From positions 599,633 through 663,632 of the forward strand of contig JBBDUI010000002.1 of assembly GCA_040903985.1 (NCBI GenBank): a stretch of DNA of 64,000 nt, written 5' to 3'. Origin of the DNA: Candidatus Saccharimonadales bacterium. GTDB lineage: Bacteria; Patescibacteriota; Saccharimonadia; QS-5-54-17. Numbering within the stretch: position 1 is the first letter of the stretch; each line of letters starts with the position of its first letter. The notes beneath the pieces were generated by a model that did not search any database, was not told where the DNA came from, and was given only the letters and a program-made list of their open reading frames with translations. Of this stretch, positions 16,778-41,646 are shown in pieces. A program made the translations under genes and the position numbers.

Positions 16778-16788
16778 ATTTGTAAATT

Positions 16789-20039: not shown

Positions 20040-21407
20040 ATGCCCCGCCTACCAATCCCCGGATCAGACGAAGGAACATGGGGTGATATCCTCAACGAGT
20101 TCCTCAGCGTCGAACTAGCTAGTGATGGCTCTCTCAAACGCGGTACCGAGCTAACCCAGAAGCTCAACCGTAGTGGCGACACCATGGGCGGCAATCTCAG
20201 TCTTGGTGGAAACCGTATCATCGGGTTAGCCGACCCCACCAACGCTACTGATGCGGCTACTAAGAACTATGTAGATACAGCTGATATAGCATCCCACACC
20301 ACCACCCACCAATCCGGCGGAACTGACGAACTGAACGTCGATGGCCTCTCCGGTGAATTAGCCGACCCTCAAATACCGAAAGGCCACTCACTGGGTGGTA
20401 TAGAACACAGTGCTACCACCCTGGCTGCCCTCAACGCCAAGCTCAGTGACGCCACCCTTGATGATGCCAGTGCTACTCGTACCCCAACTGAGCACGGTAA
20501 TGAAGCCCATTCCGCTACCTTCATCACGGCTGCCGAAGCCCCTGTTCAGTCCGTCAACGGTAACACCGGTATTGTTTCACTCGATGCCAGTGATGTAGGA
20601 GCTGATCCCTCCGGTACCGCTACCACAGCTGTTACTGATCATGAGGCAGCAGCAGATGCACATTCAGCTACCAGCATTGAGTTCGATCCGACCGGCCTTT
20701 CATACACTACAGCGATAGATGTCCAACAAGCCATCACCGAGCATGATCAGGCGATTGGTGATGGTACGTCGGGGCCGCCGCAGGTAGACACGTTCACAGC
20801 GTCGGGGACATGGGTCAAGCCGACCGGAGCGAAGCTTGTCGTTGCTCATGTCGTTGCTGCCGGTGGGGGAGGATCAGAACAGGATGGGTTCGGCGACGGT
20901 GGCGGAGGTGGGGGCGGGTCGCTACTCATTGTTGTATCCGCTGATGAACTTGATGCGACCGAGATAGTCACGGTCGGCTCAGGAGGGGCTGGTGCAACGG
21001 CCGGTGCATCGGCGGGTAATGGTGGCAGCAGCGCTTTCGCAGGCTACAGTGTCACCGGCGGGGGAGGATCGCGTAACCCTACAGGAAACAGCAAAGGTGG
21101 CGGGCACGACGGAGGTGCCGGCAGCTCTGGTGGAGCCCCCGTCGGTGCAGCTTTTGGTGGTGGTGGGGGGGGCCGGAGTTCGGGCTCGGCAATCCCTGGG
21201 GCTGGTTCGGTCTACGGCGGCGGCGGCGGTAGTACAAATGGAGCAGCCGGTGGGCCTTCGACGTTCGCTGGTGCAGGTGGTGTTGGGTCGACTGGCAGCG
21301 GAACGGGCGGTGCGGGCGGCATTCCCGGCGGCGGCGGCGGCGGGTCGCTGACTGGAACGGGCGGAGCAGGTGCCCGTGGCGAGGTTCGTATTACAACCTA
21401 CTTCTGA
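20040..21407 (+). CDS. Tail-fibre-like protein (455 aa) with a C-terminal Gly-rich module.
   Basis: MPRLPIPGSDEGTWGDILNEFLSVE leader. GDTMGGNLSL...TNATDAATKNYVDT collar. FTASGTWVKPTGAKLVVAHVVAAGGGG followed by about 200 aa of Gly-rich sequence ending GGAGARGEVRITTYF. Confidence 0.7.
   Translation: MPRLPIPGSDEGTWGDILNEFLSVELASDGSLKRGTELTQKLNRSGDTMGGNLSLGGNRIIGLADPTNATDAATKNYVDTADIASHTTTHQSGGTDELNVDGLSGELADPQIPKGHSLGGIEHSATTLAALNAKLSDATLDDASATRTPTEHGNEAHSATFITAAEAPVQSVNGNTGIVSLDASDVGADPSGTATTAVTDHEAAADAHSATSIEFDPTGLSYTTAIDVQQAITEHDQAIGDGTSGPPQVDTFTASGTWVKPTGAKLVVAHVVAAGGGGSEQDGFGDGGGGGGGSLLIVVSADELDATEIVTVGSGGAGATAGASAGNGGSSAFAGYSVTGGGGSRNPTGNSKGGGHDGGAGSSGGAPVGAAFGGGGGGRSSGSAIPGAGSVYGGGGGSTNGAAGGPSTFAGAGGVGSTGSGTGGAGGIPGGGGGGSLTGTGGAGARGEVRITTYF
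21165..21172 (+). repeat. G8 homopolymeric tract inside the Gly-rich coding region of 20040..21407.
   Basis: Read directly (tggtGGGGGGGGcc). Confidence 0.8.
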
Positions 21408-21570
21408 TCGGGTTAGCATATGTGGTATGCGCAGTAATGATCGACAATGTCACCAGTCGTTCGCCTGTCCTCGAAATCGAATCTGGTATAAATAACGATA
21501 TTAATTTATTGCAAAACGATAAATAGTATGCAAGACTAGTCATAAGATAATTATAGAAAAGGTGCAATAG

Positions 21571-22032
21571 ATGAATCGAGGATCAACCATATTCTTAAGA
21601 CTAGTTATTCTTACAATCGGACTAGTAGTCCTGGCACTTTGTGTCTACGGGATTCCACAAGCACTTATGTCGGACGTTGGCGGGTATAGATTAATCCTAC
21701 TCGGTATGTATGTACCGGCTATTCCGTTTTTTATCGCTTTATACCAAGGGTTTAAGCTGCTAGATTATATCGATAAAAATCAAACTTTCTCGAACTCATC
21801 GACTAAAGTCCTAGGGAATATAAAGTACTGCGGGATTGTAATTAGCGGGCTATATGTACTGGGCATGCCGTATGTTCTCATCGTCGCTGAGCGAGATGAC
21901 GCTCCGGGAGTAGTACTAATCGGGCTTATCATTATTGGTGCTTCCCTCGTCATTGCCGCCGCAGCTGGCCTATTCCAGCGCTTACTTCAGAATGCTATCG
22001 ATATAAAGTCTGAAAACGACCTGACGGTCTAG
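21571..22032 (+). CDS. DUF2975-like polytopic membrane protein (YoaS-like).
   Basis: 4 TM helices. Adjacent to a YozG-like XRE regulator, as in the Bacillus yoaS-yozG pair. Confidence 0.45.
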   Translation: MNRGSTIFLRLVILTIGLVVLALCVYGIPQALMSDVGGYRLILLGMYVPAIPFFIALYQGFKLLDYIDKNQTFSNSSTKVLGNIKYCGIVISGLYVLGMPYVLIVAERDDAPGVVLIGLIIIGASLVIAAAAGLFQRLLQNAIDIKSENDLTV

Positions 22033-22038
22033 GAGTAG

Positions 22039-22266
22039 ATGATGGCGATAATCATTAACATCGATGTCATGCTCGCAAAGCGTAAGATGAGCGTGACGGA
22101 ACTAGCGGAGAAGGTAGGCATCACTCTGGCGAATATCTCTATTTTAAAGAATGGCAAGGCAAAAGCGGTGCGGCTGTCGACCTTGGAGGCAATTTGTGAA
22201 GCGCTTGGATGCCAACCGGGAGATATACTAGAGTATCGCAATAATGAAACGAAAGAAGAGGCTTAA
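22039..22266 (+). CDS. XRE-family HTH transcriptional regulator (YozG-like, 75 aa).
   Basis: MSVTELAEKVGITLANISILKNGKAKAVRLSTLEAICEALGCQPGDILEY is a Cro/C1-type HTH. Confidence 0.75.
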   Translation: MMAIIINIDVMLAKRKMSVTELAEKVGITLANISILKNGKAKAVRLSTLEAICEALGCQPGDILEYRNNETKEEA

Positions 22267-22268
22267 TA

Positions 22269-22574
22269 ATGGAGAATAATACCCAAGTTATAGGAAAGAG
22301 AAACATAATCCGTATCGTGCTGGGAACTGCACTCATCCTGCTCATTCCGCTTATCGCGATGCAATTCACTGATGAAGTAGACTGGAAGCTATTTGATTTC
22401 GTTATTATCGGCATACTGCTGCTTGGTACTGGATTCACCTATGAATTGCTAGCGAGCAAGATGAAAGCTCCGGCTCAGCGAGCGATGCTCGCGCTTGTGC
22501 TCGTAACACTGCTCTTTCTAATCTGGGCAGAGCTGGCTGTCGGTATCTTTGGCTCACCATTTGCGGGGTCGTAG
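22269..22574 (+). CDS. Small membrane protein (101 aa).
   Basis: Three predicted TM helices. ORF only. Confidence 0.45.
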   Translation: MENNTQVIGKRNIIRIVLGTALILLIPLIAMQFTDEVDWKLFDFVIIGILLLGTGFTYELLASKMKAPAQRAMLALVLVTLLFLIWAELAVGIFGSPFAGS

Positions 22575-22842
22575 AAGTAGGAAAATCTCGTTAGTGAATG
22601 GATCTTTAACGTCTAATGAAGTGATTAGCTGGATATTTGGCGTGGTATTCGCGGTAATCGGGGTACTGAATTTGATATTGGTGCATGTTGTGCCGGGAGT
22701 CTTTTATCTCTTTTTATCCCTCATATATTTTCCGGCGAAAAGTATTTTTGCAGGAATAAAATTCAATAATCGTATTCCACTAAGAGTCAAAATTATAATC
22801 GGACTGATGGTTCTCTGGGGGACTTTAGCTGTGGGGAGCTGA
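22549..22842 (+). CDS. Small membrane protein (97 aa).
   Basis: TM helices. ORF only. Confidence 0.4.
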   Translation: MAHHLRGRRSRKISLVNGSLTSNEVISWIFGVVFAVIGVLNLILVHVVPGVFYLFLSLIYFPAKSIFAGIKFNNRIPLRVKIIIGLMVLWGTLAVGS

Positions 22843-23001
22843 CAGAGATGTTTGGTCTATAATTCTGCACAGTTTAGCATCTCGCCTAAGCTAAATGGGT
22901 AGACATCATCTACTCATCGGCCTATAACTATAGCTATAAGGTCTCTAACTGGCCATAAAGCTTTTCATAAAGTAACAATTCAATAATCAAGGAGATTCAC
23001 C

Positions 23002-23643
23002 ATGGCACTACTGACTAAATCATACCCGGCTCGACTAGATATCGACTACCCTAAAGAACTGGACCGTTTTACTACTTTCGTCCGTATCTTGTGGGCAATT
23101 CCGATTGTAGTAATTCTTTTATTGCTCACTGCGACCGGTGACGAAACTATAGTTAATGAGGCCGGTAAAGAGGTAGCGACTAGTAGCGGCGGCATCGTAA
23201 GCGGCTTGTTCGTAGCGACTGCGCTCATGATTTTGTTTAGGCAGCGTTATCCCCGCTGGTGGTTTAACTTCGCTCTAGAGCTCAACCGTTTCAGCACGCG
23301 AGTAGGTGCGTACCTACTTTTGCTTACCGATAGCTACCCGTCTACCGTCGATAAACAATCTGTCCAGCTCGATCTTGACTATCCTAACGTCAAGAAGAAG
23401 CTGAACCGGTGGTTGCCATTAGTGAAGTGGCTATTAGCCCTACCGCACTACATAGTATTGATCGTGCTGGCAGTGGGCGTGGTATTAGCCACCATCGTGG
23501 CTTGGTTTGCCATTCTCTTTACAGGTCGTTATCCGCGAGCGCTGTTTGACTATGTGGTTGGAGTAATTCGCTGGGCGTGGCGAGTTGATGCTTACGCCTT
23601 TCTCCTAGTTACGGATGAATATCCACCCTTCCGTCTGTCTTAG
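23002..23643 (+). CDS. DUF4389-like membrane protein.
   Basis: Two-fold internal repeat, each half having TM helices (ILWAIPIVVILLLL / LLALPHYIVLIVLAV). Confidence 0.45.
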   Translation: MALLTKSYPARLDIDYPKELDRFTTFVRILWAIPIVVILLLLTATGDETIVNEAGKEVATSSGGIVSGLFVATALMILFRQRYPRWWFNFALELNRFSTRVGAYLLLLTDSYPSTVDKQSVQLDLDYPNVKKKLNRWLPLVKWLLALPHYIVLIVLAVGVVLATIVAWFAILFTGRYPRALFDYVVGVIRWAWRVDAYAFLLVTDEYPPFRLS

Positions 23644-23753
23644 GCTACTGCTCGTATAGTCTAGTTCGACACTTCAAGGAGATAGTCTCAGGCATGCTTA
23701 TTTATAGTGTAGTAGTTAGATAAACTAGGCTGAGAGCCAGTTTTATACTACGC

Positions 23754-24296
23754 TTGTGCTTGACGAATAGCGCGCCTAGGTTCTTAATCTCAGTTATGAC
23801 ACATCCAGATACTTCTAGGTCAATCGAGTCGGTAACAGCTGTAAGCGCAGAATCATTTCATCCGCACTTAAGCGCCGAAGAAACAGTACTTGAAGTTGCT
23901 GAACTAAACTTATCTTACCTACAGCCGGATTATGAGTTGCTCTTTAGTAGTGAGCTTTCTGATGGAAACCACCTGTACTACATGCGTGTTTTGTCTATTA
24001 GTGAAGGCGGTAATCCCAGAGTGGTGCTAAGAGAAGTGCGAGATAATCGTTCACCTTCAGGCCTATGTGCAATTCTACCCCAGGATACTTTGGATATAGC
24101 GTTAGTGATGGGTGGGTGTGAACGCATCGATCCAGGATGGGGAGCGGCTGAGGGCGTAGAGTCAGGCTGGTTGAGAGTGGGGATGCGAGCTTGGTATCTC
24201 AAGCCTATGCTTATAGATTCCGTGACACAGGACTTTTTGAAAGTAGAAGAGGCTGCTTCACCGCCGATTCAGAGAATAGCGTTTGTAGAAAACTAG
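23754..24296 (+). CDS. Hypothetical protein (180 aa).
   Basis: ORF only. Confidence 0.35.
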   Translation: MCLTNSAPRFLISVMTHPDTSRSIESVTAVSAESFHPHLSAEETVLEVAELNLSYLQPDYELLFSSELSDGNHLYYMRVLSISEGGNPRVVLREVRDNRSPSGLCAILPQDTLDIALVMGGCERIDPGWGAAEGVESGWLRVGMRAWYLKPMLIDSVTQDFLKVEEAASPPIQRIAFVEN

Positions 24297-24300
24297 CTAA

Positions 24301-24386
24301 TGGTGCCCGGGGTGGGACTCGAACCCACATGCCGGTTAGGCACGAAATTTTAAGTTTCGCGTGTAAACCAATTCCACCACCCGGGC
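24301..24386 (-). tRNA. tRNA-Leu (anticodon UAA), long variable arm.
   Basis: Reverse complement gives acceptor GCCCGGG/CCCGGGC, anticodon arm CGAAA-CTTAAAA-TTTCG, a long variable arm, T-arm GGGTTCGAGTCCC, and CCA. Confidence 0.8.
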
Positions 24387-24504
24387 ATATGAAATTACAC
24401 TCAGGCAAAACGTTACTGTTCTGCCTGATTAAGGAAGGATAGCGAAAAGTTGGAGCAATGAAAAGTGTACTTAGCATCGCGTAAACTGATAGCTTATCCT
24501 AACG

Positions 24505-24578
24505 TGGAGGCGCGTACCGGATTTGCACCGGTGTACAGGGTTTTGCAGACCCTTGCCTAACTCCTCGGCCAACGCGCC
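24505..24578 (-). tRNA. tRNA-Cys (anticodon GCA).
   Basis: Reverse complement gives acceptor GGCGCGT/ACGCGCC, anticodon arm AGGGT-CTGCAAA-ACCCT, T-arm CCGGT-GCAAATC-ACCGG, and CCA. Confidence 0.8.
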
Positions 24579-24688
24579 GTAGCTGACGGCTACTTAATGG
24601 TATATCAATCTATACACGAGCGCCAACCAGAGCTGGATATGGGGACTTACAGATGCTATAATATGGCCAAACTAAGAGGTATAAAATC

Positions 24689-25237
24689 ATGTGGATCGCT
24701 ATCACGATTATCGCCGTTGTACTGGTCGCTATAGTATTTATTTATAACAGTCTGGTACGGGCTAATGTGCGGACTGAAGAGGCGTGGAGCGATATCACTG
24801 TGCAGCTCAAACGCCGTCTAGACCTCATCCCTAACCTGGTTAACACCGTTAAAGGCTATGCCTCGCATGAGAAAGAGGTCTTTGAGAAGGTGACTCAAGC
24901 TCGGGCGCAAGCGCTTAACGCTAGTGGCGTAAAAGAGACCGCTGAAGCTGAGAATCAGTTCGAGGGAGCCCTGAAGAGTCTATTTGCCGTCGCTGAAGCC
25001 TATCCGGACCTTAAGGCTAGTGATAACTTCCGTGAGTTACAGACTGAGCTGGTCGACACTGAGAATAAGATTCAGGCCGCCCGTCGTTTCTACAACGGTG
25101 CAGTACGTGATCTCAATATTAAGACTCAGGTGTTCCCGACCAATTTAATCGCTGGTATGTTGGGCTTTACGGAGAAGGAATTCTTCGAAGTTGAAGACAT
25201 GGCCACCGTCCGTGAGCCGGTCGACGTCCAGTTCTAA
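24689..25237 (+). CDS. lemA: LemA family protein.
   Basis: N-terminal TM helix, then the conserved LemA region ([25 protein letters not shown]...). Confidence 0.8.
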
Positions 25238-25274
25238 TTAGAGTAGTTAATTAATACTAAAGAGGTGTGACTAG

Positions 25275-26168
25275 GTGTATTCCGCAGTCCGAAAAAACAA
25301 ACTGAAGACCGTACTTATCATCTTCGCCTTTGTGCTACTGATGAGTGCGCTGGGATGGGTAATCTCCGTTACTCTTGATACCCCGGGTTTCTTTATCCCG
25401 ATGTTGATTTTCGCCATTACTTACGCTGGGATTAGTTACTTCGCTAGTGCGAAGATGGCGATCGCTATGACTGGGGCCAAACCGGTAACAGCTCAGGAGG
25501 CTCCCCGCCTGTATAAGATAGTAGAGAACTTAAGCATTAGTGCCGGTATGCCGATGCCTAAGATTTATATCGTTAACGACCCGGCCCCCAATGCCTTTGC
25601 CACCGGGCGAGATCCGGAGCACGGCGTGGTAGCTGCTACGACTGGCATCCTCGATATATTAGACGATAGCGAGCTTGAAGGAGTGATGGCCCATGAGCTC
25701 AGTCATGTCCAGAACTATGACATTCGGGTCACTAGTATCGTTATCGCTCTCGTGACGATTATCGCTTTCGTTAGTGATTGGTTACTGAGAATCGGAATGT
25801 TCGGCGGTCTTGGCGATCGAGACTCGCGGGCGGGGGGAGTAATGCTGCTGGTCAGTATCGTAGCGGCCATCATCGCACCCTTAATCGCGATGATGCTGCA
25901 GCTGGCCGTCTCCCGGAAGCGAGAATTTCTCGCAGACGCGTCAGGAGCGTTAATGACCCGCTATCCGGAAGGACTAGCTAGCGCTTTGCAGAAGATTGAA
26001 AGTTCGGCTCGACCTATGCGTAAGGCCAACAACGCTACGGCTCACCTCTTTCTGGCCAATCCTTTCGGCCGGGAAAAGCGCGGCCAGTTCGTACGTAAGT
26101 TATTCAGTACTCACCCACCGACGGCCGATCGTGTGGCTCAGCTGAATCAAATGGGAACTGAGCTTTGA
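25275..26168 (+). CDS. htpX: Zinc metalloprotease HtpX (M48 family).
   Basis: HELSHV zinc motif. TM helices. PTADRV C-terminal motif. Confidence 0.85.
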   Translation: MYSAVRKNKLKTVLIIFAFVLLMSALGWVISVTLDTPGFFIPMLIFAITYAGISYFASAKMAIAMTGAKPVTAQEAPRLYKIVENLSISAGMPMPKIYIVNDPAPNAFATGRDPEHGVVAATTGILDILDDSELEGVMAHELSHVQNYDIRVTSIVIALVTIIAFVSDWLLRIGMFGGLGDRDSRAGGVMLLVSIVAAIIAPLIAMMLQLAVSRKREFLADASGALMTRYPEGLASALQKIESSARPMRKANNATAHLFLANPFGREKRGQFVRKLFSTHPPTADRVAQLNQMGTEL

Positions 26169-26932
26169 CAGCGCAGGCAGCGACTCGCCCTTTACCAACG
26201 GCCCGCCGACTGGCAAGAGTCGGTTTTGCGCGCTGGCGCTCGCTTATAACTTCACTTACCTTAGTCGCTTTGGTGGCGGTAGCTGTCGATTTCTTTATCG
26301 TTACTTCGTCCGATACAGCTACGTTTGCCGGCGAGATCTGGTTCGCCATTATCATGAGTGTACTTATCTGGCGTATTGCTAAAACTACAGATAAGCAGCA
26401 ACCAAATTTACGCCAGACATTCTATAGTGGTTCACGCGATTTCATCAAACAACTCTTAGTGCTACTAGTTTGGATACTCTACCTTATACCGTTCGCAGTC
26501 GGTGGGTTGTTTGTGGAGCAGGTGATGCGCTATCAGTTTGGCGCCTCAACACCGGAGCAGGTAGTAGCTAGCGTAGTCTGGTTCTTACTAGCCAGTCTAA
26601 GCCTATACTGGCTACTGCGTTCTTGGTTAGCACCGCTTTACGTGGCAGATAAGAGTCCGGTTGCAGCAATCAAGGCCGCCTGGGGCTTCAGCCGCAAACG
26701 TTTGTGGTGGCTGGCTCGCAGTGTGGGATTGGCCGTACTGATTGCTACAGTTCCATTAATCCTCGCTGTAGTACTACTCTATGTGCCGGCTTTAAATAAT
26801 GATTGGATGGTACTTGTCATCAATCTGCTGACGCGGTTTATACTAATCGCCTTCTCGCTAGCCTACTTGATAGCTGTAACTTATGAGATCAAACGACATG
26901 GCCCTCCAGTCCAACCAAAACGAAAAAGATAA
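26165..26932 (+). CDS. Polytopic membrane protein, hypothetical.
   Basis: About 6 TM helices. Start/stop coupled to htpX (ATGA). Confidence 0.45.
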   Translation: MTAQAATRPLPTARRLARVGFARWRSLITSLTLVALVAVAVDFFIVTSSDTATFAGEIWFAIIMSVLIWRIAKTTDKQQPNLRQTFYSGSRDFIKQLLVLLVWILYLIPFAVGGLFVEQVMRYQFGASTPEQVVASVVWFLLASLSLYWLLRSWLAPLYVADKSPVAAIKAAWGFSRKRLWWLARSVGLAVLIATVPLILAVVLLYVPALNNDWMVLVINLLTRFILIAFSLAYLIAVTYEIKRHGPPVQPKRKR

Positions 26933-28937: not shown

Positions 28938-28996
28938 ATAGTTCGTATACTATACATTGTCTCCATAGCGATATGGCTAAAAGCATTACTTTTCAA

Positions 28997-29073
28997 GGGG
29001 CATTAGCTCAGTTGGCTAGAGCGCTTCGCTGGCAGTGAAGAGGTCGTCGGTTCGAATCCGACATGCTCCACCA
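28997..29073 (+). tRNA. tRNA-Ala (anticodon GGC) with the G3:U70 identity pair.
   Basis: Acceptor GGGGCAT/ATGCTCC with G3-U70 wobble. Anticodon loop CTGGCAG. T-arm GTCGG-TTCGAAT-CCGAC. CCA. Confidence 0.75.
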
Positions 29074-30504: not shown

Positions 30505-30511
30505 TAGCTAC

Positions 30512-33844: not shown

Positions 33845-33902
33845 GATGCCCAAGACTACAGAGAAGGATCAGTTAACATTACCTTCCAAGGAGCGACGTA
33901 GT

Positions 33903-34541: not shown

Positions 34542-34623
34542 GCTTGCAACTTCGCTTGTTATGGCGGGTGGTCTTCGTTATACTTTTATGTAAAGTATAA
34601 ATTAAAGCATGACAGGAGTCGGC

Positions 34624-34756
34624 AATGGGAATGCCCAAGAAGCGCCGCAGCCCACGCAAGCAAGGCCTGCACCGTTCACATTTGGTGCGACAGCTCGCCG
34701 AGCGGGTTAATAAGCGGTCACCGGTAAAGGTGAAATTAGGAAACAAGCAGTCGTAA
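34624..34756 (+). CDS. rpmF: Ribosomal protein bL32 (about 43 aa). Not in the ORF track because it is under 60 aa. Coordinates are approximate to within 1 nt: my hand count and the track frame disagree by 1 nt in this stretch.
   Basis: Manual translation gives M(GM)PKKRRSPRKQGLHRSH..., matching the bL32 N-terminal PKKRTSKSRRDxRRSH pattern. Confidence 0.5.
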
Positions 34757-34781
34757 ATTTAAAGTACGGGTACATTAAAAC

Positions 34782-35231
34782 ATGGCTTCAAATCGGCACC
34801 TTGGCAGGATAGTAGCACTTCAGAGTTTGTATGAATACGATTTTCGGGTAGACGAAAAGCCCGATATTGATGCCATAACTCAGCGCAATCTAGATCAGTA
34901 CGATGGTGTGATCGACGACACTGAGTTTGTCTATGATATGACGCGGTCGGTTTTAGTCGAGCAAGAGCGAATTGATGCCATCATCCAGCCAGCTGCACCA
35001 GAGTGGCCGATCGCTCAAATCGCCCGGATCGACAAGATTGTGCTTAGGATGGCAGTATATGAGCTGGTCGTGCAGCAGAAGATCCCGCCGAAAGTAGCCA
35101 TTAACGAGGCTGTCGAACTCGGCAAACGATTCGGCGGTGACAGCTCATCAAAATTTATTAACGGAGTATTAGGAACTATTTATCGTGAACAAATCGAAAC
35201 CAAATCAGACCAACCAACAGCAGCCGAGTAA
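34782..35231 (+). CDS. nusB: Transcription antitermination factor NusB-like.
   Basis: [13 protein letters not shown]... NusB fold pattern. 149 aa. Position upstream of rnc/rpsP. Confidence 0.65.
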
Positions 35232-35772
35232 GCCGCAGAATTCATCAAACGGAAGTAATCAACCTCGTTCTGGCTCACGGCCACGCGGTCATAAGCCGAA
35301 ACTGAATAAATTTCGGCAGATTCGTCAGCGTATTCGCAAGACCGTACCGGAAGAGACGGCGGGTGGAGTGGTATTTCGGCGCACTGAGCGAGGGATCGAA
35401 ATACTAATGATCCAGGATGCCAAGGACCGTTGGACCATCCCCAAAGGACATGTCGAGCCAGGTGAGCGGATTGAAGAAACAGCGGTGCGGGAGATTGAAG
35501 AAGAGACTGGATTGGGTGATCTACGTATTCTCGATCGACTAGGTAAGATCGATTTTCGTTATCGCAAACAAGACAAACTTATCTTGATGACGACGCATAT
35601 TTTCCTGATTCATGCCTTTAAGAACACAGAGGATTACGTACCGGAAGAGAACGAGGGGATTAAGGACGTCGAGTGGTTCCCAGCTAATAAAGCACTTGAT
35701 CTTATCGAGTACGACGACATCGGTAAGCTATTTCTAATCGCCCTAAAGAAGATACGCCATGCCGGATATTAA
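35185..35772 (+). CDS. Nudix hydrolase (GTG start).
   Basis: Nudix box [23 protein letters not shown]. Confidence 0.75.
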
Positions 35773-36451
35773 AGATTTACAAGCTGTTATCGGGGTGACG
35801 TTCACTCAGGTGGATTTGTATGAAACGGCCTTAACCCATCGCTCTTACCTGAACGAGAAGGGTAGATCCCAAGTAGAGCATAACGAGCGGATGGAGTTTC
35901 TCGGTGATGCCGTGCTGGAGTTGGTAGTCACCGAATACCTCTATCGTAACTATCAAGAGCCAGAAGGTATCTTAACTAACTGGCGCAGCGCGTTGGTTAA
36001 GACCGAGTCGCTTAGTAGCGTAGCTGAGACTTTAGAGATCGAGCAGTGGCTGCGGCTGAGTCGGGGTGAACGGAAGGGCAGTCGTCGAGCCCGACGGCAG
36101 ATTCTCGCCAACACCATAGAGGCTATTATCGGTGCTATTTATCTCGATCAGGGCTATGGACCGGCTCAGCTATTCATTACTAACAACATTATCTCTACCC
36201 TGCCAAAGATCCTGGCTGAGGGTAGTTGGCAGGATAGTAAGACAAAGTATCAGGAATTAGTGCAGGAGCGAGAAGGACACACGCCGGAATATGAAGTGAT
36301 ATCCGAAACTGGACCAGATCACGATAAGCGGTTTACGGTTGGAGTTTATGTCGACGGCCAATTACGGGGGCAGGGAGACGGCACTAGTAAGCAGATCGCC
36401 CAGCAGGAAGCAGCGACCGCGGCGTTAGCCGAAGTCGAAGTGTCTGAGTAA
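35759..36451 (+). CDS. rnc: Ribonuclease III.
   Basis: ERMEFLGDAVLELVVTEYLY RNase III signature. C-terminal dsRBD. Confidence 0.85.
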   Translation: MPDIKDLQAVIGVTFTQVDLYETALTHRSYLNEKGRSQVEHNERMEFLGDAVLELVVTEYLYRNYQEPEGILTNWRSALVKTESLSSVAETLEIEQWLRLSRGERKGSRRARRQILANTIEAIIGAIYLDQGYGPAQLFITNNIISTLPKILAEGSWQDSKTKYQELVQEREGHTPEYEVISETGPDHDKRFTVGVYVDGQLRGQGDGTSKQIAQQEAATAALAEVEVSE

Positions 36452-36480
36452 TTGACACCTGTGCTTCAGATGGGTACAAT
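36452..36480 (+). promoter_or_regulatory. Consensus sigma70-type promoter (TTGACA-17 bp-TACAAT) upstream of rpsP, followed by a leader hairpin (36519..36548) and T-run.
   Basis: Read directly. Perfect -35 and -10 hexamers with 17-bp spacer. Confidence 0.55.
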
Positions 36481-36564
36481 AGAGCAGGTTGTGATAAGAA
36501 ATTATGATATTTCACACTTATCCGCTCTCAAAATCAGAGCGGATTTTAATTCTGAAGAGGTGAC

Positions 36565-37035
36565 ATGCTAACAATTAGACTTGCCCGTACCGGTCGTAAG
36601 AAGCTCGCTCACTATCGTGTAGTAGCGGCCGATTCGCGCCGCGCGGCTACCGGGAAGTTTGTCGCTCAACTCGGTCATTATAATCCACACTCTAAAGAGC
36701 TGGTCCTCGATGAGGCTCTCACTCAACACTACCTTGATAAGGGGGCTCAACCTTCCAGTCGAGTGGTGCGTTTACTGCAGAATAACAAGGGCGTGAAACT
36801 ACCTGAGTGGGCTCTGAAGAATCTGGTGGTTAAAGCCGAACAGGCCAAAGTCGAGCCCGAAGTTGAAGCGGCTGAGACTACTCCGGCTGAAACCACTGAA
36901 GCTACAACTGAGCCGGAAACAGAAGTCGAGTCCACAGCTGAGACTACGGAGCCTGATAAGGCCGCATCAGAAGAAGATGCCGCCAGTGAGGCGGCTGAGC
37001 CGGAAGCCTCTACTGACGACAGTAAAAAAGAGTAG
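36565..37035 (+). CDS. rpsP: Ribosomal protein bS16 with an acidic C-terminal extension.
   Basis: MLTIRLARTGRKKLAHYRVVAADSRR is the canonical bS16 N-terminus. Confidence 0.9.
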   Translation: MLTIRLARTGRKKLAHYRVVAADSRRAATGKFVAQLGHYNPHSKELVLDEALTQHYLDKGAQPSSRVVRLLQNNKGVKLPEWALKNLVVKAEQAKVEPEVEAAETTPAETTEATTEPETEVESTAETTEPDKAASEEDAASEAAEPEASTDDSKKE

Positions 37036-37131
37036 CCTTTTCGCCCGTAAAAAGGCTGAGATCACCGCTTGAACCGGCGGCCTGACCATATGCTATGATG
37101 AGATGAGTTAAGTAAGCAGGAGATTCCGGGT

Positions 37132-37572
37132 ATGGCAGACACTATAGATCAACAGTTTATCGAGTATATAGCTAAAACTCTCGTCGAAAACGAAGACGCC
37201 GTTCGGGTGGAGCGCACTATTGATGAGCGGGGTGTACTACTTCAGCTCCATGTAGCGCCGGAAGATCTTGGCCGAGTTATTGGCCGGGCTGGTAGTACGG
37301 CTAAGAGTATGCGTACGCTTCTGCGGGCGTTAAGTGTGAAAAACGATGCTCGTTATAACTTAAAGATTGTTGATTCGGGCGATCCAGTTGCTAGCGTGAG
37401 TGACGATGCGGTAAGCCATGATGATGTAGATGCAACTCCGCCGGCTGAGCCGGTAGCCACGGATGAACCGATGGATATTCCAGACCATTCTGAAGAAAGC
37501 GACGCCGAAAGTGATAGCCTAAGTCGCAGCCGCCGGGAAATCGCTGATTTGACCGACGACCTCGATATTTAG
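37132..37572 (+). CDS. KH-domain RNA-binding protein (YlqC-like) with an acidic tail.
   Basis: VIGRAGSTAKSMRTL contains the KH GxxG loop. Conserved position between rpsP and trmD. Confidence 0.75.
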   Translation: MADTIDQQFIEYIAKTLVENEDAVRVERTIDERGVLLQLHVAPEDLGRVIGRAGSTAKSMRTLLRALSVKNDARYNLKIVDSGDPVASVSDDAVSHDDVDATPPAEPVATDEPMDIPDHSEESDAESDSLSRSRREIADLTDDLDI

Positions 37573-37580
37573 GATACCTA

Positions 37581-38225
37581 ATGAAGATAAGTATAGTTAC
37601 CCTTTTCCCTGACATGTTTGCCGGGCCATTTGCGATGAGTATGTTAGCTAAGGCGCAGGAGAAGGGGCTAGCGGAGATAGAGTTGATCGACCTGCGAGAT
37701 TTCGGCATCGGACCGCGACGGCAGGTCGATGATATACCGTATGGTGGCGGTGACGGTATGGTACTGCGTCCAGAGCCACTGTTTGCTGCGGTTGAATCGG
37801 TCAGAACATCTGAGAGCACAGTCATCTTATTGAGTCCACAAGGTGATACTCTGCGGCAGGAGCTGGTCCAAGACTTCAGTCAGTTGCCCCATTTGATCTT
37901 ACTTTGCGGCCACTACGAAGGATTTGACGAACGTATCCGCACGCTGGCCGATCATCAGATATCGATCGGTGATTATGTGTTGACGGGTGGCGAGTTACCG
38001 GCAATGGTTCTAACCGATGCTGTAGTGCGACTTATCCCCGGAGTGCTCGGGGGTGAGCGCTCGGCGCTCGATGAATCTTTTAGTGACGGCGTAACGTTAG
38101 AGCATCCGCACTATACACGGCCAGAAGAGTTTCGCGGTATGTCTGTGCCGGATGTGCTCCTCAGCGGTCACCACCAAAAGATCGATGATTGGCGTAAGCA
38201 AAAGAGTCGACGCAAGAACAGTTAG
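37581..38225 (+). CDS. trmD: tRNA (guanine37-N1)-methyltransferase TrmD.
   Basis: MKISIVTLFPDMF N-terminus. SPOUT knot motifs. 214 aa. Confidence 0.9.
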   Translation: MKISIVTLFPDMFAGPFAMSMLAKAQEKGLAEIELIDLRDFGIGPRRQVDDIPYGGGDGMVLRPEPLFAAVESVRTSESTVILLSPQGDTLRQELVQDFSQLPHLILLCGHYEGFDERIRTLADHQISIGDYVLTGGELPAMVLTDAVVRLIPGVLGGERSALDESFSDGVTLEHPHYTRPEEFRGMSVPDVLLSGHHQKIDDWRKQKSRRKNS

Positions 38226-38275
38226 CTTAAACACCGTATAATTAGTGGGGATAGTCGAAGTTAGGAGGCTTCAGA

Positions 38276-39016
38276 ATGAGTGAAGATTCAGAGAGCCGTT
38301 TATCTCACCCGGCCGCAGCCGGAAAAAAGCTAGAGCTGGAGCTCAGCGCACGGATAGCCGATCATGCCGCCAGAGCCGCCAGCTTGTTGGCACGGTTAGA
38401 GGCACCGGAGGAGCTACTGGATGGAGTTCGGGGGCAGGCCGAGCTAGGGGTGATTAGTGAGCAGAATAGAAGTAGTTATAATTTTCGACGCTACTACGCT
38501 CTTTTCGCTGAACCATTAGCTGAGGTTAGCTTAACTTTAGAGGATATAGATAGGGAGTGGCTGAGCCAGCTACTCTTGAACTGGTTCGGGGTTGATCAAG
38601 TGGTCCGTCAGGCCGCACAACGGCACATCGGAGCGCAGCTTTCTTCGGTAGCGAGCTATACAGACTGGCAGGATAAGATCGTCAAGCCACGTCTAGACCG
38701 TATCCCGACGGACTTACTACCTACGCAAGCCCGGGGGCAGACCCAGTTCGAGTCGGCGTACTATAGCCATATCAGAGTGGCCGCCTATGCGGCCGGAATC
38801 GGCCTCAGTTTTTTACGCTATGAGCTAGGCGATCAGTATCCGACCACTACTGTCGATAACATCCAGGATATTCAACTGCGTAAATATCTAGAGCGTGTGT
38901 CCGATAAGGACTTGCAGCAACAGGCAAATGCATTAACAGAACACCAGGCTAGTGCGTTTGCCTTTGACGATGTCTTTATTATCGATACGCACCGACAGTA
39001 CGTTGAGCAGGAGTGA
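38276..39016 (+). CDS. Hypothetical protein (246 aa) at the position where rimM/rplS usually follow trmD.
   Basis: ORF only. No motif. Confidence 0.35.
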   Translation: MSEDSESRLSHPAAAGKKLELELSARIADHAARAASLLARLEAPEELLDGVRGQAELGVISEQNRSSYNFRRYYALFAEPLAEVSLTLEDIDREWLSQLLLNWFGVDQVVRQAAQRHIGAQLSSVASYTDWQDKIVKPRLDRIPTDLLPTQARGQTQFESAYYSHIRVAAYAAGIGLSFLRYELGDQYPTTTVDNIQDIQLRKYLERVSDKDLQQQANALTEHQASAFAFDDVFIIDTHRQYVEQE

Positions 39017-39047
39017 TATACTAAAACGAAAGATAATCGGAGGGGAC

Positions 39048-39446
39048 ATGAAACGTTTACTTATGAAATTAGCGACTCCAGTCCAGGCTCACTGTGACTT
39101 AGCCTGTGGAGTATACGATCCAGCCCAGGCTAGAGTAGAAGCCGAATCGGTCAAGGCGATTCAGGAGAAATATCAAGCTTCAGATGATGCGACATTTAAG
39201 CAGCGCTGCGTACTGATAAAAGAAGAGCGGGCCCAATTAGTGAAGGAGCACCTCTGGGTACTGTGGACCGACTATTTTAAGCCGGAGCATCTAGAGGTGT
39301 ATCCAGATCTGCACGATCTGTTTTGGCGAGCGACTAAGCAGGCTGGAGAGTGCAAGAAATCGACCGACCCAGCTACCGGGCAGAAGTTACTTGATCTTGT
39401 GGCAGAAGTTGAGTCTGTCTTTACCGCTACCAAACAGCAGCAGTAA
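39048..39446 (+). CDS. sodN: Nickel superoxide dismutase precursor (14-aa propeptide, then the HCDLACGVYDP Ni-hook).
   Basis: The mature sequence HCDLACGVYDPAQARVEAESVKAIQEKY...VLWTDYFKPEHLEVYPDLH aligns nearly residue-for-residue with Streptomyces NiSOD. RBS GGAGGGG precedes ATG 39048. Confidence 0.85.
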   Translation: MKRLLMKLATPVQAHCDLACGVYDPAQARVEAESVKAIQEKYQASDDATFKQRCVLIKEERAQLVKEHLWVLWTDYFKPEHLEVYPDLHDLFWRATKQAGECKKSTDPATGQKLLDLVAEVESVFTATKQQQ

Positions 39447-39449
39447 CCT

Positions 39450-39740
39450 ATGTTTGGTTGGCCTTGGCTTAAGCTCTACCGGGTGGAAGGAGAGTCAATG
39501 TCCCCTACTCTTCGCCCCGGAGTTCTGTTCCTAGGCTCTGGGCTGATTACTGCGAAAGCTGGTCATATAGTTGTTATCAAGCGTAAACCTCTGAGCATTA
39601 AGCGAATAAAATCACTCGACACCGATGGAGTATGGGTAGAAGGTGACAATAAATCAGCCAGTACCGATAGCCGAATTTACGGCCCGGTAAAGAGAGAACA
39701 GATAGAGGCTATAATTTTTTTTCGGGTAGTAAGTAGGTGA
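39450..39740 (+). CDS. sodX: NiSOD maturation protease SodX (S26 signal-peptidase-like).
   Basis: GESMSPTL (signal peptidase I Ser motif) and STDSR. Sits immediately downstream of sodN. Confidence 0.7.
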   Translation: MFGWPWLKLYRVEGESMSPTLRPGVLFLGSGLITAKAGHIVVIKRKPLSIKRIKSLDTDGVWVEGDNKSASTDSRIYGPVKREQIEAIIFFRVVSR

Positions 39741-40003
39741 AAGTTAAATTAAAAATTATAATCTATGCAAGGTATCTAGACGTACGCCTTATTAGGCGCG
39801 GGCGTGTAGTATAGTTTGACCATAAAACGGATATAACTCAGATATTCTGTAAACTGTACTTGGTCCATTAGCTAAGTGAGGGTGTAGTTGTTTGCACCCC
39901 TTAACCATAAATGGTAAAATTGAGATATTGTAATCAATCGTTACCACGGAGGCTAATCTGCCTATTATGAACAGTAATTTATTTCTGAGCATAAGGTTAA
40001 CTT

Positions 40004-40987
40004 ATGTCTAGACTTCCTATTCCCGGCTCTGACGATGGAGTCTGGGGAGACATTCTAAACGAATACCTCCAGCACGAGCATAACGAGGATGGTACGCATA
40101 AAACAGTTCCTGTTTCCAGGGGCGGTACCGGTGCTATCAACGCTTCTGCCGCTAGAACAAACTTGGATGCTGCAGCTAGCGATCATAACCACGATGTCGA
40201 TTACGAAGTCGCCGGAGCAGTCTCTACTCATGCTTCCGAGGTTACAAGTGTGCATGGTATCGCTGACACCTCAGTGCTTGAAACTACTACCGGTGCTCAA
40301 GGTAAGGTGGATACCCATGCCTCCGATACAACAAGTGTCCACGGCATAGCCGATACTTCGGTCCTCGAGACTTCAGCCGGTGCTCAAGCAAAAATTGATG
40401 CACACACCGAGGCAAGTGATCCTCACTCTAATTACTTAGATACGACTCGCCATGAGGCTTTAGACCACTCCTCTGTACTTGCTACAGCCGCCTTATCAGA
40501 CCTCGGATCACTGGATGCCGGTTCGAGCAGAATCACAAATATAATCGACCCATCCAGCCCTCAGGACGCCGCAACAAAAGATTATGTAGATACCAATATT
40601 CCTTCAGCATTAAATGACTTGTCTGATGTTGATACTTCGGGCGGATCCGAGGGCGACTCTCTTACTCAGCAGGCTGATGGAACGTTTGCACCGCAGCAAA
40701 ACACGCACCCTACAAGCCTTCGCCCGCATACCTCAACGCTAGGCCCAGTGGCGTACAGGATGTCGAGAACCGGAAAGGATGAAAACGGTATTTTCACTAC
40801 GGTTAACTGGCATCGTCCTGACGACACCCTTGCCGTTCAGTCGGTACTGTCGGGTGGAACAACACCAACCTATACTGCTCGAACAGTTACGGAATATGCA
40901 GCAAATGGTGTCGATGTGTTGGAAACCACGACCTACACGCTTTCTTACGATGGTGACGGTGATCTTATTGCGGAGATATTCGCATGA
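40004..40987 (+). CDS. Tail-fibre-like protein (327 aa) with internal tandem approximately 27-aa repeats.
   Basis: MSRLPIPGSDDGVWGDILNEYL leader. Repeats TSVHGIADTSVLETTTGAQGKVDTHASDT appear twice. ATKDYVDT collar motif. Confidence 0.7.
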   Translation: MSRLPIPGSDDGVWGDILNEYLQHEHNEDGTHKTVPVSRGGTGAINASAARTNLDAAASDHNHDVDYEVAGAVSTHASEVTSVHGIADTSVLETTTGAQGKVDTHASDTTSVHGIADTSVLETSAGAQAKIDAHTEASDPHSNYLDTTRHEALDHSSVLATAALSDLGSLDAGSSRITNIIDPSSPQDAATKDYVDTNIPSALNDLSDVDTSGGSEGDSLTQQADGTFAPQQNTHPTSLRPHTSTLGPVAYRMSRTGKDENGIFTTVNWHRPDDTLAVQSVLSGGTTPTYTARTVTEYAANGVDVLETTTYTLSYDGDGDLIAEIFA

Positions 40988-41646
40988 TTAGTATGCTCGA
41001 CGCACATGGCATCGTTGGCGGCGGAGGTAATGCAGAGAAAGTTCTAATGAGTCAGGCATTTACTGTATCTGGACAGTTCGTCGTACCTAGCGGAGTTACT
41101 GAGATATTAATCTCTGCTATTGGCGCTGGCGGGGGTGGCGGGTATGCCCATAATGGAGGATATGGCTGGTCGATGCGAGGCGGCGGCGGAGGTAGTGGTT
41201 ACTACTTTCCAAAGACTCGATACACCGTTACGCCAGGTATCACTCTGACGGTTACTATTGGCTCGGGCGGGGCAGGCCAATCTAGTGGAAATTCTTCCCC
41301 TGGCCCCGGTGGTAGTACTGTAGTTTCTGGCACGGGAGTATCAATTACTGCTGGCGGAGGAGCAGCGGGTAATGGTGCTGCTGAAGGCAATCCTGGGTCT
41401 GGCACAGGTTCTAGTCACTTTTGGCGGGGTGGGGCGGCTGGACGTGCAGGCTACGTTCAGAACGGCAGTGGTTCTGGTGCAGGCGGAGGTCCGTTAGGTG
41501 GAGCGAGTAAGACGTCGGGAGGCTCGGGCAATGCTGGTGGAGTAGGATCCGGTGGAAGCGGTGGGCATAACTCAACAGGTAGCGGGAGTGTCTACGCTGG
41601 TGGAGCAGGAGGTCGTGGAGAAGTCTTGATTGAGTGGTACGAATAA
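40984..41646 (+). CDS. Gly-rich tail-fibre C-terminal module encoded as a separate ATGA-coupled gene (220 aa).
   Basis: FTVSGQFVVPSGVTEILISAIGAGGGGG...GGAGGRGEVLIEWYE is homologous to the C-terminal half of 20040..21407. Confidence 0.6.
   Translation: MISMLDAHGIVGGGGNAEKVLMSQAFTVSGQFVVPSGVTEILISAIGAGGGGGYAHNGGYGWSMRGGGGGSGYYFPKTRYTVTPGITLTVTIGSGGAGQSSGNSSPGPGGSTVVSGTGVSITAGGGAAGNGAAEGNPGSGTGSSHFWRGGAAGRAGYVQNGSGSGAGGGPLGGASKTSGGSGNAGGVGSGGSGGHNSTGSGSVYAGGAGGRGEVLIEWYE

Follow-up and report, generated by a model that had tools for sequence, protein, structure and literature searches.

The window analyzed here is a stretch of 64 kb from a Candidatus Saccharimonadales chromosome, taken from a metagenome-assembled genome whose two assemblies with this sequence may share reads. 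Two loci in it encode a Gly-rich module of the Gly_rich_2 family (Table 1), and the three open reading frames and the peptides quoted from them in an earlier note were all found as described. In the 455-aa protein, the module occupies about 205 aa (45% of the length); it is the Gly-rich C-terminal part that the note recognized, but the note's lead motif and further 200 aa together overstate its size. At the second locus, the module follows a gene that the note called a leader gene. This gene does carry the leader, but its product also has a repeat shaft and an orphan C-terminal domain of its own. The 455-aa protein has tail-fibre matches in PHROG, its proximal 110 aa match annotated phage tail fibres by tblastn, and phage tail-fibre proteins are similar to its residues 19-109. 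PF21722 is already assigned to it in the annotation of NCBI contig JBBDOY010000002.1.

Table 1. Features of the fibre and Gly_rich_2 loci in the window
Feature	Position	Strand	Description
Leader paralog	599..1174	-	191 aa, without Gly-rich domain; found by tblastn and alignment; leader HMM 85 bits
132-aa ORF	1323..1721	-	Overlaps leader paralog 1721..2458 by 1 nt (coupled); not Gly-rich
Leader paralog	1721..2458	-	245 aa; closest to the proximal half of the 455-aa protein (alignment)
Leader paralog	2730..4232	-	500 aa; C-terminal domain of DUF6923-like repeats
Single-chain fibre gene	20040..21407	+	455-aa ORF: N-terminal leader, tail-fibre-like shaft, C-terminal Gly_rich_2 domain
Leader of the fused 455-aa protein	20040..20138	+	33 aa, conserved, M.RLPIPGSD.G.WGDILNE.L...DG
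Fused Gly_rich_2 (TNF-like + polyglycine "brush") domain	20784..21404	+	Residues 249-455; 36.7% Gly
Upstream fibre gene	40004..40987	+	327-aa ORF: leader, HGIADTSVLET-type repeats, DAATKDYVD motif, orphan C-terminal domain of ~100 aa
GGAG, Shine-Dalgarno-like	40972..40975	+	8 nt upstream of ATG 40984; read from the sequence
Free-standing Gly_rich_2 gene	40984..41646	+	220-aa ORF; ATGA overlap with the upstream stop codon
Domain proper of the free copy	41047..41640	+	Residues 22-219; 33.7% Gly
Leader paralog	48319..49608	+	429 aa; HGIADTSVLET repeats in common with 40004..40987; NCBI WD467_03520

The junction of the two-gene locus reads ...GAG ATA TTC GCA TGA, and the ATG at 40984-40986 overlaps the stop codon by 4 nt (ATGA), which agrees with the proposed start of the free gene 4 nt inside the upstream stop. 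The start codon could be either 40984 or 40993. NCBI, in annotating the same contig, begins the free gene at the next ATG, 40993, giving 217 aa and a 5-nt gap without overlap, and the 220-aa form is called exactly on a Logan contig (assembly of a sequencing run). No promoter-like site was found between the two genes. The 327-aa protein is named [quoted passage not shown] by NCBI. It has PHROG tail-fibre matches, and a DAATK.YVD motif is a further tail-fibre mark of the partner proteins. Homologs of its C-terminal 103 aa were sought, and none were detectable. In the 220-aa protein, only about 21-25 residues precede the Gly_rich_2 domain, and the protein therefore has no obvious attachment domain.

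Six dispersed tail-fibre-like paralogs in the window, including both fibre proteins described above, begin with the same 33-aa leader, in which 17 columns are invariant. The leader, which may be a common docking element, is covered by no Pfam or NCBIfam model. The product of 1721..2458 is 62% identical to the 455-aa protein over residues 1-109. Together with the 132-aa ORF, whose product has no Pfam or PHROG match, it was counted as another coupled leader-gene layout.

The proposed homology of the two Gly-rich regions was examined by several methods, with divided results from pairwise comparison. Uncorrected tblastn aligned the modules at 39% identity over 213 columns (E=3e-26), but BLASTP with compositional adjustment left the Gly-rich parts unaligned (E=45), and phmmer with the free module as the query did not report the 455-aa protein. 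The Smith–Waterman score of the pair (282) exceeded three composition-preserving nulls, namely whole-sequence shuffles (160-166 ± 13; z=9.0-9.4), sequences shuffled only inside blocks of 15 aa (z=9.2), and sequences in which such blocks were permuted (z=5.9); none of the shuffled sequences (n=500 in one set and 400 per null in the other) reached this score. When all glycines were masked, the signal became weak (z=1.9), indicating that it rests on the glycine positions and flanking strands. These corrected and masked comparisons would suit compositional convergence of unrelated Gly-rich sequences, the condition named in the earlier note as refuting homology. This explanation is extremely unlikely in view of the remaining evidence. 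In the columns where neither module has Gly, 32 of 101 are identical. PF21722 matches residues 256-453 of the 455-aa protein (profile positions 6-225 of 226; 34.7 bits) and residues 28-219 of the 220-aa protein (2-226 of 226; 42.1 bits), both above the gathering cut-off of 24.3 bits. When an HMM was made from 15 outside homologs plus the free module, leaving out the 455-aa protein, it still found residues 249-452 of the latter over positions 4-198 of 200 (195 of 200), at 34.1 bits after a bias correction of 92 bits. The predicted models of both modules have eight strands in identical order and agree in their three best PDB matches. Homology from end to end is thus confirmed, with the curated profile and the independent HMM being decisive.

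The two copies are the only Gly_rich_2 domains in the window, and they are distant from each other. Ranked by normalized score among the relatives of the free copy, the fused copy is 15th of 22, and its own nearest relative is a free form from another genome. Neither copy is the closest relative of the other, so nothing points to a recent exchange inside this genome. The description of the module as an autonomous, shufflable unit is therefore apt in that a discrete predicted domain is used both fused and separately translated, but a recent shuffle does not appear to have taken place.

The near-full-length PF21722 matches and the independent HMM, together with the predicted models, identify the module as the known receptor-binding domain consisting of a TNF-like β-sandwich and a polyglycine-II "brush." In the PF21722 family (~62,800 clusters), the domain occurs free (proteins of about 210 aa), as a C-terminal fusion, or in tandem, with as many as 14 copies. 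Stand-alone proteins with this domain only (204-236 aa) are common in phages and metagenomes. A search of PDB sequences with the A2 profile gave the Pam3 fibre (E=4.5e-16) and Bxb1 gp33 (E=2e-9), and the structure matches among viruses at E<=1e-3, 242 in number, are named as glycine-rich domain, minor tail, or tail fiber proteins. In solved phage structures, the domain forms the distal, receptor-recognizing tip of tail fibres or spikes (Pam3 gp24; Bxb1 gp29 and gp33), and brush domains differ in their mode of deployment (PMC13243795).

Both the split and the fused layouts recur in other Saccharibacteria. Leader and Gly_rich_2 are fused in proteins of loci L008 and L012. In L033, a leader gene is followed by an ATGA-overlapping Gly_rich_2 gene and then by a second one, and in L045, two tightly spaced Gly_rich_2 genes lie behind the leader gene. 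The free copies of L033 and L045 have a conserved MS.RK.W..QW N-terminus, which is absent from the 220-aa protein. In related Saccharibacteria, some leader proteins have collagen-like GxT repeats, with separate Gly_rich_2 genes after them. In L040, a 139-aa leader gene is followed after 2 nt by a gene for a 687-aa protein that matches a phage virion structural family (E=5e-64).

Here, we propose that the PF21722 tip serves this leader-type fibre family in two ways, as a single chain at 20040..21407 and as two genes at 40004..41646, a reading to which we give a probability of about 0.6. At the former locus, the tip would be the C-terminal domain of a one-chain fibre. At the latter, the tip, a 220-aa protein that is nearly all domain, would be encoded in one operon with the 327-aa fibre, which ends in a small C-terminal domain of its own; in this operon, the ATGA overlap and the GGAG may permit coupled translation and matched amounts of the two proteins. 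The free tip most likely trimerizes via its TNF-like sandwich and then most likely binds the C-terminal domain of the upstream fibre noncovalently, as Bxb1 gp33 does on wing proteins and S16/T2 gp38 on gp37. The tip would bind the receptor, and the leader would dock the fibre. The short stretch before the domain, the missing MS.RK.W..QW, the lack of homologs of the upstream C-terminal domain with which a conserved pairing could be seen, the lack of an export signal and of a phage cluster nearby, and the ambiguous start codon count against this proposal.

The free protein might instead work by itself as a trimeric binding module, either soluble or with an anchor of its own, or transiently aid the folding of the neighboring fibre without being joined to it, as T4 gp38 helps gp37 fold. 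Its minimal N-terminal extension for docking, the abundance of domain-only proteins elsewhere, and the label "tail fiber assembly" on its best PHROG match (phrog_863) are consistent with this role. Nevertheless, we consider it unlikely, as tight translational coupling with a fibre gene is seen in three other genomes. The phrog_863 profile has 690 positions, and the fused protein matches it too, over shaft and tip; the profile thus represents a fibre family rather than a chaperone family. Pfam detected no Tfa/Caudo_TAP-type helical domain, and the predicted model of the free protein is strand and coil throughout. It is far less probable that the two genes are a fused gene broken by a frameshift mutation or assembly error, with one or both ORFs being pseudogene fragments. 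The ORFs do abut in different frames, and both assemblies may come from the same reads, but TGA at 40960-40962 closes the downstream frame, which is open for only seven codons before an ATG with GGAG at a suitable distance. The ~100-aa C-terminal domain of the upstream protein has no counterpart in the fused protein, free homologs of 208-224 aa with similarly short N termini are common, and the split layout recurs with the ATGA overlap in L033 and in similar form in L045. The 21-nt window at the junction contains no X XXY YYZ slippery heptamer, and a programmed frameshift fusion is therefore also unlikely.

A broader alternative, doubtful but to be taken seriously, is that the leader family and both Gly-rich copies are parts of a phage, or of a particle derived from one (prophage remnant, tailocin, or GTA-like), with the other structural genes elsewhere in the genome, and are not cellular adhesins. 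All recognizable parts are of the phage tail-fibre type, no signal peptide or hydrophobic segment was found in these fibre and tip proteins, which suits release by lysis, two neighbors of paralog 48319 weakly match virion and minor-tail families, and the L040 partner is of virion type. However, the window contains no terminase, portal, capsid, tube, or sheath gene, and no phage structural gene cluster was found near these fibre genes. The leader-family genes stand singly among housekeeping genes (e.g., LigA, LeuRS, TrmD, TatC, and ComEC). The leader motif occurs at 46 loci among species-representative genomes, nearly all Saccharibacteria, and was confirmed in 0 of 2.9 million IMG/VR viral contigs; no conserved phage-like neighbor was found across the leader loci.

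The deployment proposed here can be compared with several known systems. The adaptor-plus-tailspike design is a known concept, and the short leader protein and large virion-type protein of L040 resemble the anchor-plus-tailspike of podophages. The viral matches of the domain include collagen-repeat proteins, as in the fusions of giant viruses and phages. Those systems are virion components, whereas the present loci lie in the chromosome and outside prophages. The glycine-rich domain of ALK/LTK (PDB 7LRZ, 7NX3, and 7LIR) likewise combines a TNF-like fold with a PXGG lattice, but it is the extracellular domain of an animal receptor kinase, and the similarity is distant (15-26% identity over 117-133 aligned residues).

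In cyanophage Pam3 gp24 (PDB 7YPX and 7YFW), a docking helix at the N terminus precedes a TNF-like and a glycine-rich domain, and these two domains recognize the host (PMC9608196). The protein shares with the module the TNF-like sandwich whose loops enter a glycine-rich lattice with GGGGxGG-type runs, and the distal position on the fibre. Unlike Pam3 gp24 with its helical docking and trimerization domain, the free copy has no docking domain, and the fused copy sits on a long shaft that is not a helical bundle, behind a different 33-aa leader. In Pam3, gp24 is followed by the chaperone gene gp25, whereas no gp25/Tfa-like gene follows either locus here, and the carrier genome is that of a bacterium, not a phage. 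The T2/T6/S16-type gp38 on gp37 (PDB 6F45) is similar in that the gene for a small Gly-rich (polyglycine-II), receptor-binding tip lies directly downstream of the fibre gene and its product is attached noncovalently to the end of the fibre; the Pam3 paper (PMC9608196) and the PPII paper both remark on the resemblance to gp38. It is nevertheless of a different family, with a gp37-attachment N-terminal domain and without the TNF-like sandwich, and the proteins here gave no match to Pfam GP38 at E<=1.

The closest parallel is mycobacteriophage Bxb1 (PDB 9D93), in which one genome encodes a fused copy (gp29, tail spike) and a free copy (gp33, tail wing brush), a direct precedent for the pair described here. 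Bxb1 gp33 is a separately encoded brush on the wing protein gp30 and does not bind other tail proteins directly (PMC12646305). Its N-terminal part is about 55 aa long, as against the short stretch in the free copy; N-terminal attachment parts are found in Pam3 gp24, Bxb1 gp33, and S16 gp38. Also unlike Bxb1, the fibre presumed to be the partner here ends in an orphan domain, and the genes lie outside a virion structural module. The phage hosts are Actinobacteria, on which cultivated Saccharibacteria also grow (PMC10633639). The pair had been put forward as direct evidence of modularity, but free, fused, and tandem forms of PF21722 were already on record, and Bxb1 gp29 and gp33 preceded it. Fused and free use of this domain is therefore known in phages, and the pair is mostly ordinary; less ordinary is its setting, a Candidatus Saccharimonadales chromosome with six dispersed leader paralogs and no prophage in view.

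The Gly-rich module present at the C-terminus of the 455-aa fibre protein (the fused copy) and as the free-standing 220-aa protein (the free copy) can be assigned, with a probability of about 0.9, to the Gly_rich_2 or "brush" domain (Pfam PF21722). Both copies match the family HMM over nearly its full length and above the gathering cut-off of 24.3: the 455-aa protein with 34.7 bits (residues 256–453, profile positions 6–225 of 226), a match that is also precomputed for its gene, and the 220-aa protein with 42.1 bits (residues 28–219, positions 2–226 of 226). An independent HMM, trained on the free module plus 15 outside homologs without the 455-aa protein, found residues 249–452 of that protein (positions 4–198 of 200). 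In the predicted models, a two-sheet TNF-like sandwich has loops that form a stacked glycine-rich (PPII-like) lattice. In the sequences and their alignment, the central loops contain GGGGxGG-type runs, and the strands that flank them follow the patterns F-T-x-S-G...P-x-G and G-x-V-x-I. The motifs are FTVSGQFVVPSGV, GAGGGGG, GGGGGSG, VTIGSGGAG, and GGAGGRGEVLIEW in the free copy, and FTASGTWVKPTGA, AAGGGGS, GGGGGGGS, VTVGSGGAG, and GGAGARGEVRITT in the fused copy. The non-glycine landmarks F-T-x-S-G...P-x-G-V, V-T-[VI]-G-S-G-G-A-G, G-G-[ST]-[ST], and G-G-A-G-x-R-G-E-V-x-I are common to both and occur in the same order. These two are the only copies of the domain in the window, and the C-terminal placement in the 455-aa fibre would agree with a distal location.

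The homology of the two Gly-rich regions, as asserted in the earlier note, is thus borne out by the PF21722 profile, the independent HMM, and the fold; the pairwise alignment offered there as a check stood only in part. Without correction, the two regions (glycine content 34–37% in both) aligned by tblastn with 39% identity over 213 columns, and their Smith–Waterman score of 282 was reached by none of the shuffles in any set (z = 9.0–9.4 against whole-sequence shuffles, 9.2 against shuffles inside 15-residue blocks, and 5.9 against permuted 15-residue blocks). With compositional adjustment, however, BLASTP did not align the Gly-rich regions (E = 45), and phmmer did not report the pair. When glycine was masked, the pairwise z value was only 1.9, too weak a signal for a decision; therefore, the pairwise evidence alone consists of glycine positions and flanking strands. 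The failure of BLASTP and phmmer is not taken as a refutation because the profile and fold evidence agree.

All three ORFs have exactly the boundaries reported previously, and the ATGA overlap between the 327-aa fibre gene and the 220-aa gene is real (GAG ATA TTC GCA TGA, ATG at 40984–40986). An in-frame TGA at 40960–40962 closes the frame of the 220-aa ORF upstream, so that it is not extendable in this direction. The NCBI record starts at the next ATG (40993), which gives 217 aa and a 5-nt gap to the fibre gene, and the Logan assembly starts at 40984 with the 220-aa form. The latter start is favoured because of the spacing of a GGAG Shine–Dalgarno-like motif, which lies 8 nt upstream of ATG 40984 versus 17 nt upstream of ATG 40993. 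With either start codon, the fibre gene and the downstream Gly_rich_2 gene are tightly packed. The promoter scan gave no promoter-like site between them; the promoter and terminator scans carry little weight because their counts were at or below shuffle expectation.

Coordinates of the features discussed in the text
Feature	Sequence	Coordinates	Strand	Product
Leader paralog	window	599..1174	−	
ORF downstream of a leader paralog	window	1323..1721	−	132 aa
Leader paralog	window	1721..2458	−	
Leader paralog	window	2730..4232	−	
Low-GC island	window	7990..19787		
tRNA-Gly	window	7990..8065		
Large serine recombinase	window	8054..9580		
MmeI-type restriction-modification enzyme	window	12213..15308		
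Leader paralog, fibre with fused module	window	20040..21407	+	455 aa
Sod_Ni gene and Peptidase_S26-like gene	window	38952..39740		
Leader paralog, fibre of the two-gene pair	window	40004..40987	+	327 aa
Free Gly_rich_2 gene	window	40984..41646	+	220 aa
First gene of adjacent pair	window	45629..47155	+	
Second gene of adjacent pair	window	47218..48195	+	
Leader paralog	window	48319..49608	+	
Cas2-like / PaaX_M protein	window	53213..53689	−	158 aa
Leader locus with tandem Gly_rich_2 genes	L033	4001..6435		
Leader locus with tandem Gly_rich_2 genes	L045	130..2411		
Leader locus, contig labelled Actinobacteria	L040	4001..6480		
Leader locus, contig labelled Actinobacteria	L021	4001..5593		

Free and fused forms of the domain are common. 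A profile search over 1.84 billion representative proteins gave 62,761 Gly_rich_2 clusters at E ≤ 1e-3 (27,548 at E ≤ 1e-10), and the best 150 of the 62,761 include eight free-standing proteins of 208–248 aa alongside many C-terminal fusions and giant proteins that carry up to 14 domain copies. A structure search of the viral library BFVD gave 242 matches at E ≤ 1e-3. Among them are stand-alone proteins of Gordonia and Mycobacterium phages (204–236 aa) and fusions (500–1345 aa) that carry tail fibre or minor tail annotations. When the free module was used as a tblastn query against 50,697 phage genomes, nothing matched, which the low-complexity filter probably explains. Given this abundance and the gp29/gp33 pair of phage Bxb1, the modularity is a known property of a catalogued family. 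The autonomous, shufflable unit proposed in the earlier note is real as a module, but its modularity was already known and a recent shuffle is not supported. In a comparison of 22 domain sequences by normalised score, which is a rough guide only because the scores are raw and glycine-biased, the free copy had the fused copy only in 15th place, the fused copy was itself best matched by a free-standing protein of another Saccharibacterium (L045), and the two forms interleaved. Such interleaving would be consistent with long-term repeated domain shuffling, not with exchange inside this genome.

The six leader paralogs of the window share a 33-aa N-terminal segment that no Pfam or NCBIfam model covers and that is invariant at 17 of its first 30 columns (M.RLPIPGSD.G.WGDILNE.L..E...DG); the C-termini of the paralogs are unrelated. 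The leader is followed by generic tail-fibre elements (GGT[LM].G.L, a DAATK.YVD motif, and HGIADTSVLET repeats), and the regions past it match PHROG tail-fibre families, annotated tail fibres of phages, and PDB chains of phage hyaluronidase and tail fibres. Repeats of the form H....T.VHGIADTSVLET..GAQ.K.D.H are found in both the 327-aa protein and the last leader paralog of the window. Among the 592 database relatives retrieved through this region, the majority have PF18454 (Mtd_N, major tropism determinant N-terminal domain) and a few have PF19264 (DUF5907); no reverse transcriptase gene was found among the window genes checked.

In species-representative genomes, the leader motif occurs at 46 loci, nearly all in Saccharibacteria. 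No universal partner gene is present across them; the neighbours include a glycosyltransferase (7 loci), a 926-aa esterase-domain protein (6), and TatC (5). The brush domain is deployed behind the leader with a short linker (loci L008 and L012), behind the leader with a long shaft (the 455-aa protein), or in one or two separate genes after a leader protein, as in the window pair, in L045, and in L033, where an ATGA overlap is again present. What recurs is a conserved proximal adaptor whose distal modules are either part of the same chain or encoded by neighbouring genes. The 132-aa ORF, which is not Gly-rich and has no family match, lies downstream of a leader paralog with a 1-nt stop-codon overlap, and this coupling suggests a fibre plus a coupled distal gene as a general layout of the family. 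In L033 and L045 (Saccharibacteria MAGs), a short leader protein with collagen-like G-x-T repeats precedes two tandem Gly_rich_2 genes. Their Gly_rich_2 products have the N-terminus MS.RK.W..QW...G in common, and their leader proteins the C-terminus ..VWFY.G.DY.EKP.ARIF.G..DP..EGFTL..GDIWE.T; these termini have the look of two halves of a docking pair. Some contigs with leader genes are labelled as Actinobacteria MAGs (L040 and L021; Galbitalea and Salinibacterium). In L040, only 2 nt separate the 139-aa leader gene from a downstream gene for a 687-aa protein that matches phrog_23819 (virion structural protein, E = 5e-64). The products of two adjacent genes just upstream of the last leader paralog in the window lack a signal peptide and share a ~100-aa C-terminal domain ending in FERWGAVQI. 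Their weak matches are to an Ig-like Pfam model and to virion structural and minor tail families of phages, and they are possible partners of the fibre family.

The window belongs to NCBI contig JBBDOY010000002.1 (739 kb, assembly GCA_040876815.1), whose proteins are named there as those of a Candidatus Saccharimonadales bacterium MAG. Between the 455-aa gene and the two-gene fibre operon lie genes for LigA, a Mur ligase, LeuRS, NusB, RNase III, ribosomal protein S16, TrmD, and Ni-SOD, and TatC, a histidine kinase, ComEC, VanY, and a P-type ATPase are also encoded nearby. Directly upstream of the fibre operon are the nickel superoxide dismutase (Sod_Ni) gene and a small signal-peptidase-like gene (Peptidase_S26, weak match). 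A prophage tail module is not supported here: the neighbours are housekeeping or defence genes, the leader was confirmed in no IMG/VR contig, and no terminase, portal, capsid, tail-tube, or baseplate gene was seen in the 64-kb window or in the flanks (≤4 kb) of related loci. Directly upstream of the 455-aa gene, a 12-kb low-GC island (GC 0.35–0.40 versus ~0.50 elsewhere) begins at tRNA-Gly. It encodes a large serine recombinase, DnaD-like/HTH and Macro-domain proteins, an MmeI-type restriction-modification enzyme, and Abi_alpha, HARE-HTH/PD-(D/E)XK, DUF2779, and DUF8370/8371 proteins, and it looks like an integrated defence island; no convincing att-type direct repeats flank it. A lone protein with a Cas2-like / PaaX_M domain has no CRISPR-associated genes among its Pfam-scanned neighbours.

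Here, we propose how the two-gene fibre could assemble, starting from the domain identity, the operon layout, and the recurrence of both layouts, which are observed. The free 220-aa protein would trimerise via its TNF-like sandwich, and the trimer would then cap the 327-aa fibre by binding the C-terminal domain of the latter. The product would be a two-chain counterpart of the single-chain 455-aa fibre, with Bxb1 gp33 or S16/T2 gp38 as models. Physical association of the two products is a tentative proposal, at slightly below even odds. A weak point of capping is that just ~21–25 residues lie ahead of the domain in the free protein. The search with the C-terminal 103 aa of the 327-aa fibre retrieved no homologs, not even the protein itself. 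The two genes could also be read as a broken fused gene. This is unlikely because the free gene has its own Shine–Dalgarno-like motif and ATG, the upstream protein carries an additional domain, free homologs of this length are common, other genomes show the same layout, and a slippery heptamer for frameshift fusion is missing. A programmed frameshift fusion of the 327-aa and 220-aa ORFs was likewise rejected: the stretch from the in-frame TGA to the ATG is only 21 nt long and holds no such heptamer.

As to what the fibres decorate, signal peptides and hydrophobic segments are absent from these proteins, which suits virion proteins. Against this assignment, the genes are interspersed with housekeeping genes, the family is spread widely across Saccharibacteria, and no member turned up in viral contigs: an exact-pattern scan of IMG/VR, which distant viral relatives may escape, gave 35 matches to the leader motif and 0 confirmed. 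A more speculative possibility, which we consider rather improbable at present, is that the leader family is a Saccharibacteria-specific toolkit of host-attachment fibres, for which the episymbiont domesticated phage receptor-binding parts. In such a toolkit, the leader would dock many different fibres on one cell-surface anchor or export route, and interchangeable distal modules, fused or coupled as downstream genes, would decide which host envelope is bound. These modules would include the brush domain used by actinobacteriophages on actinobacterial cell walls. The hosts of cultivated Saccharibacteria are Actinobacteria (PMC10633639). The best-characterised users of the brush domain include phages of Actinobacteria, which is circumstantial support for host attachment; no paper linking Saccharibacteria to tail fibres of their own was found in the literature search.

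The fused/free pair alone adds little, as the brush domain is catalogued and its use as a module by phages has been documented before. Its genomic setting is moderately interesting. In this reduced chromosome of a Saccharibacterium, at least six genes within 64 kb encode phage-fibre-like proteins with swappable tips and a common, unannotated N-terminal leader; no prophage is nearby, and the leader is present across dozens of Saccharibacteria species. Should these proteins be attachment fibres, they would be candidate host-range determinants in episymbionts whose cultivated members live on Actinobacteria, and the leader would mark an anchoring or export mechanism.

The 220-aa gene resembles those of the Tfa, Pam3 gp25, and Caudo_TAP chaperones in its position downstream of a fibre gene, but its product has no Tfa-type Pfam match and its predicted model is helix-free, and a chaperone of this type is not supported. 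phrog_863 is labelled "tail fiber assembly", but its profile of 690 positions is fibre-like and covers the fused protein as well. With T2/S16-type gp38, the 220-aa gene shares being separate and directly downstream of the fibre gene; however, its product has neither a GP38 family match nor a PGII sandwich with an N-terminal gp37-attachment domain. The GGGGxGG-type motif of both window copies is as described for Pam3, in which a TNF-like sandwich is extended into a lattice with twelve glycine-rich motifs, and this unit is the distal, host-recognising end of the fibre (PMC9608196). No paper found in the literature search mentions PF21722 or Gly_rich_2; such units are named polyglycine-rich or "brush" domains, with PPII bundles in Pam3, gp29, and gp33, and their varied deployment by phages has been stressed (PMC13243192, PMC13243795). 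Bxb1 encodes the domain fused in gp29 and free in gp33, which docks on the wing protein gp30 (PMC12646305), and thus, like the window, it holds both forms in one genome.
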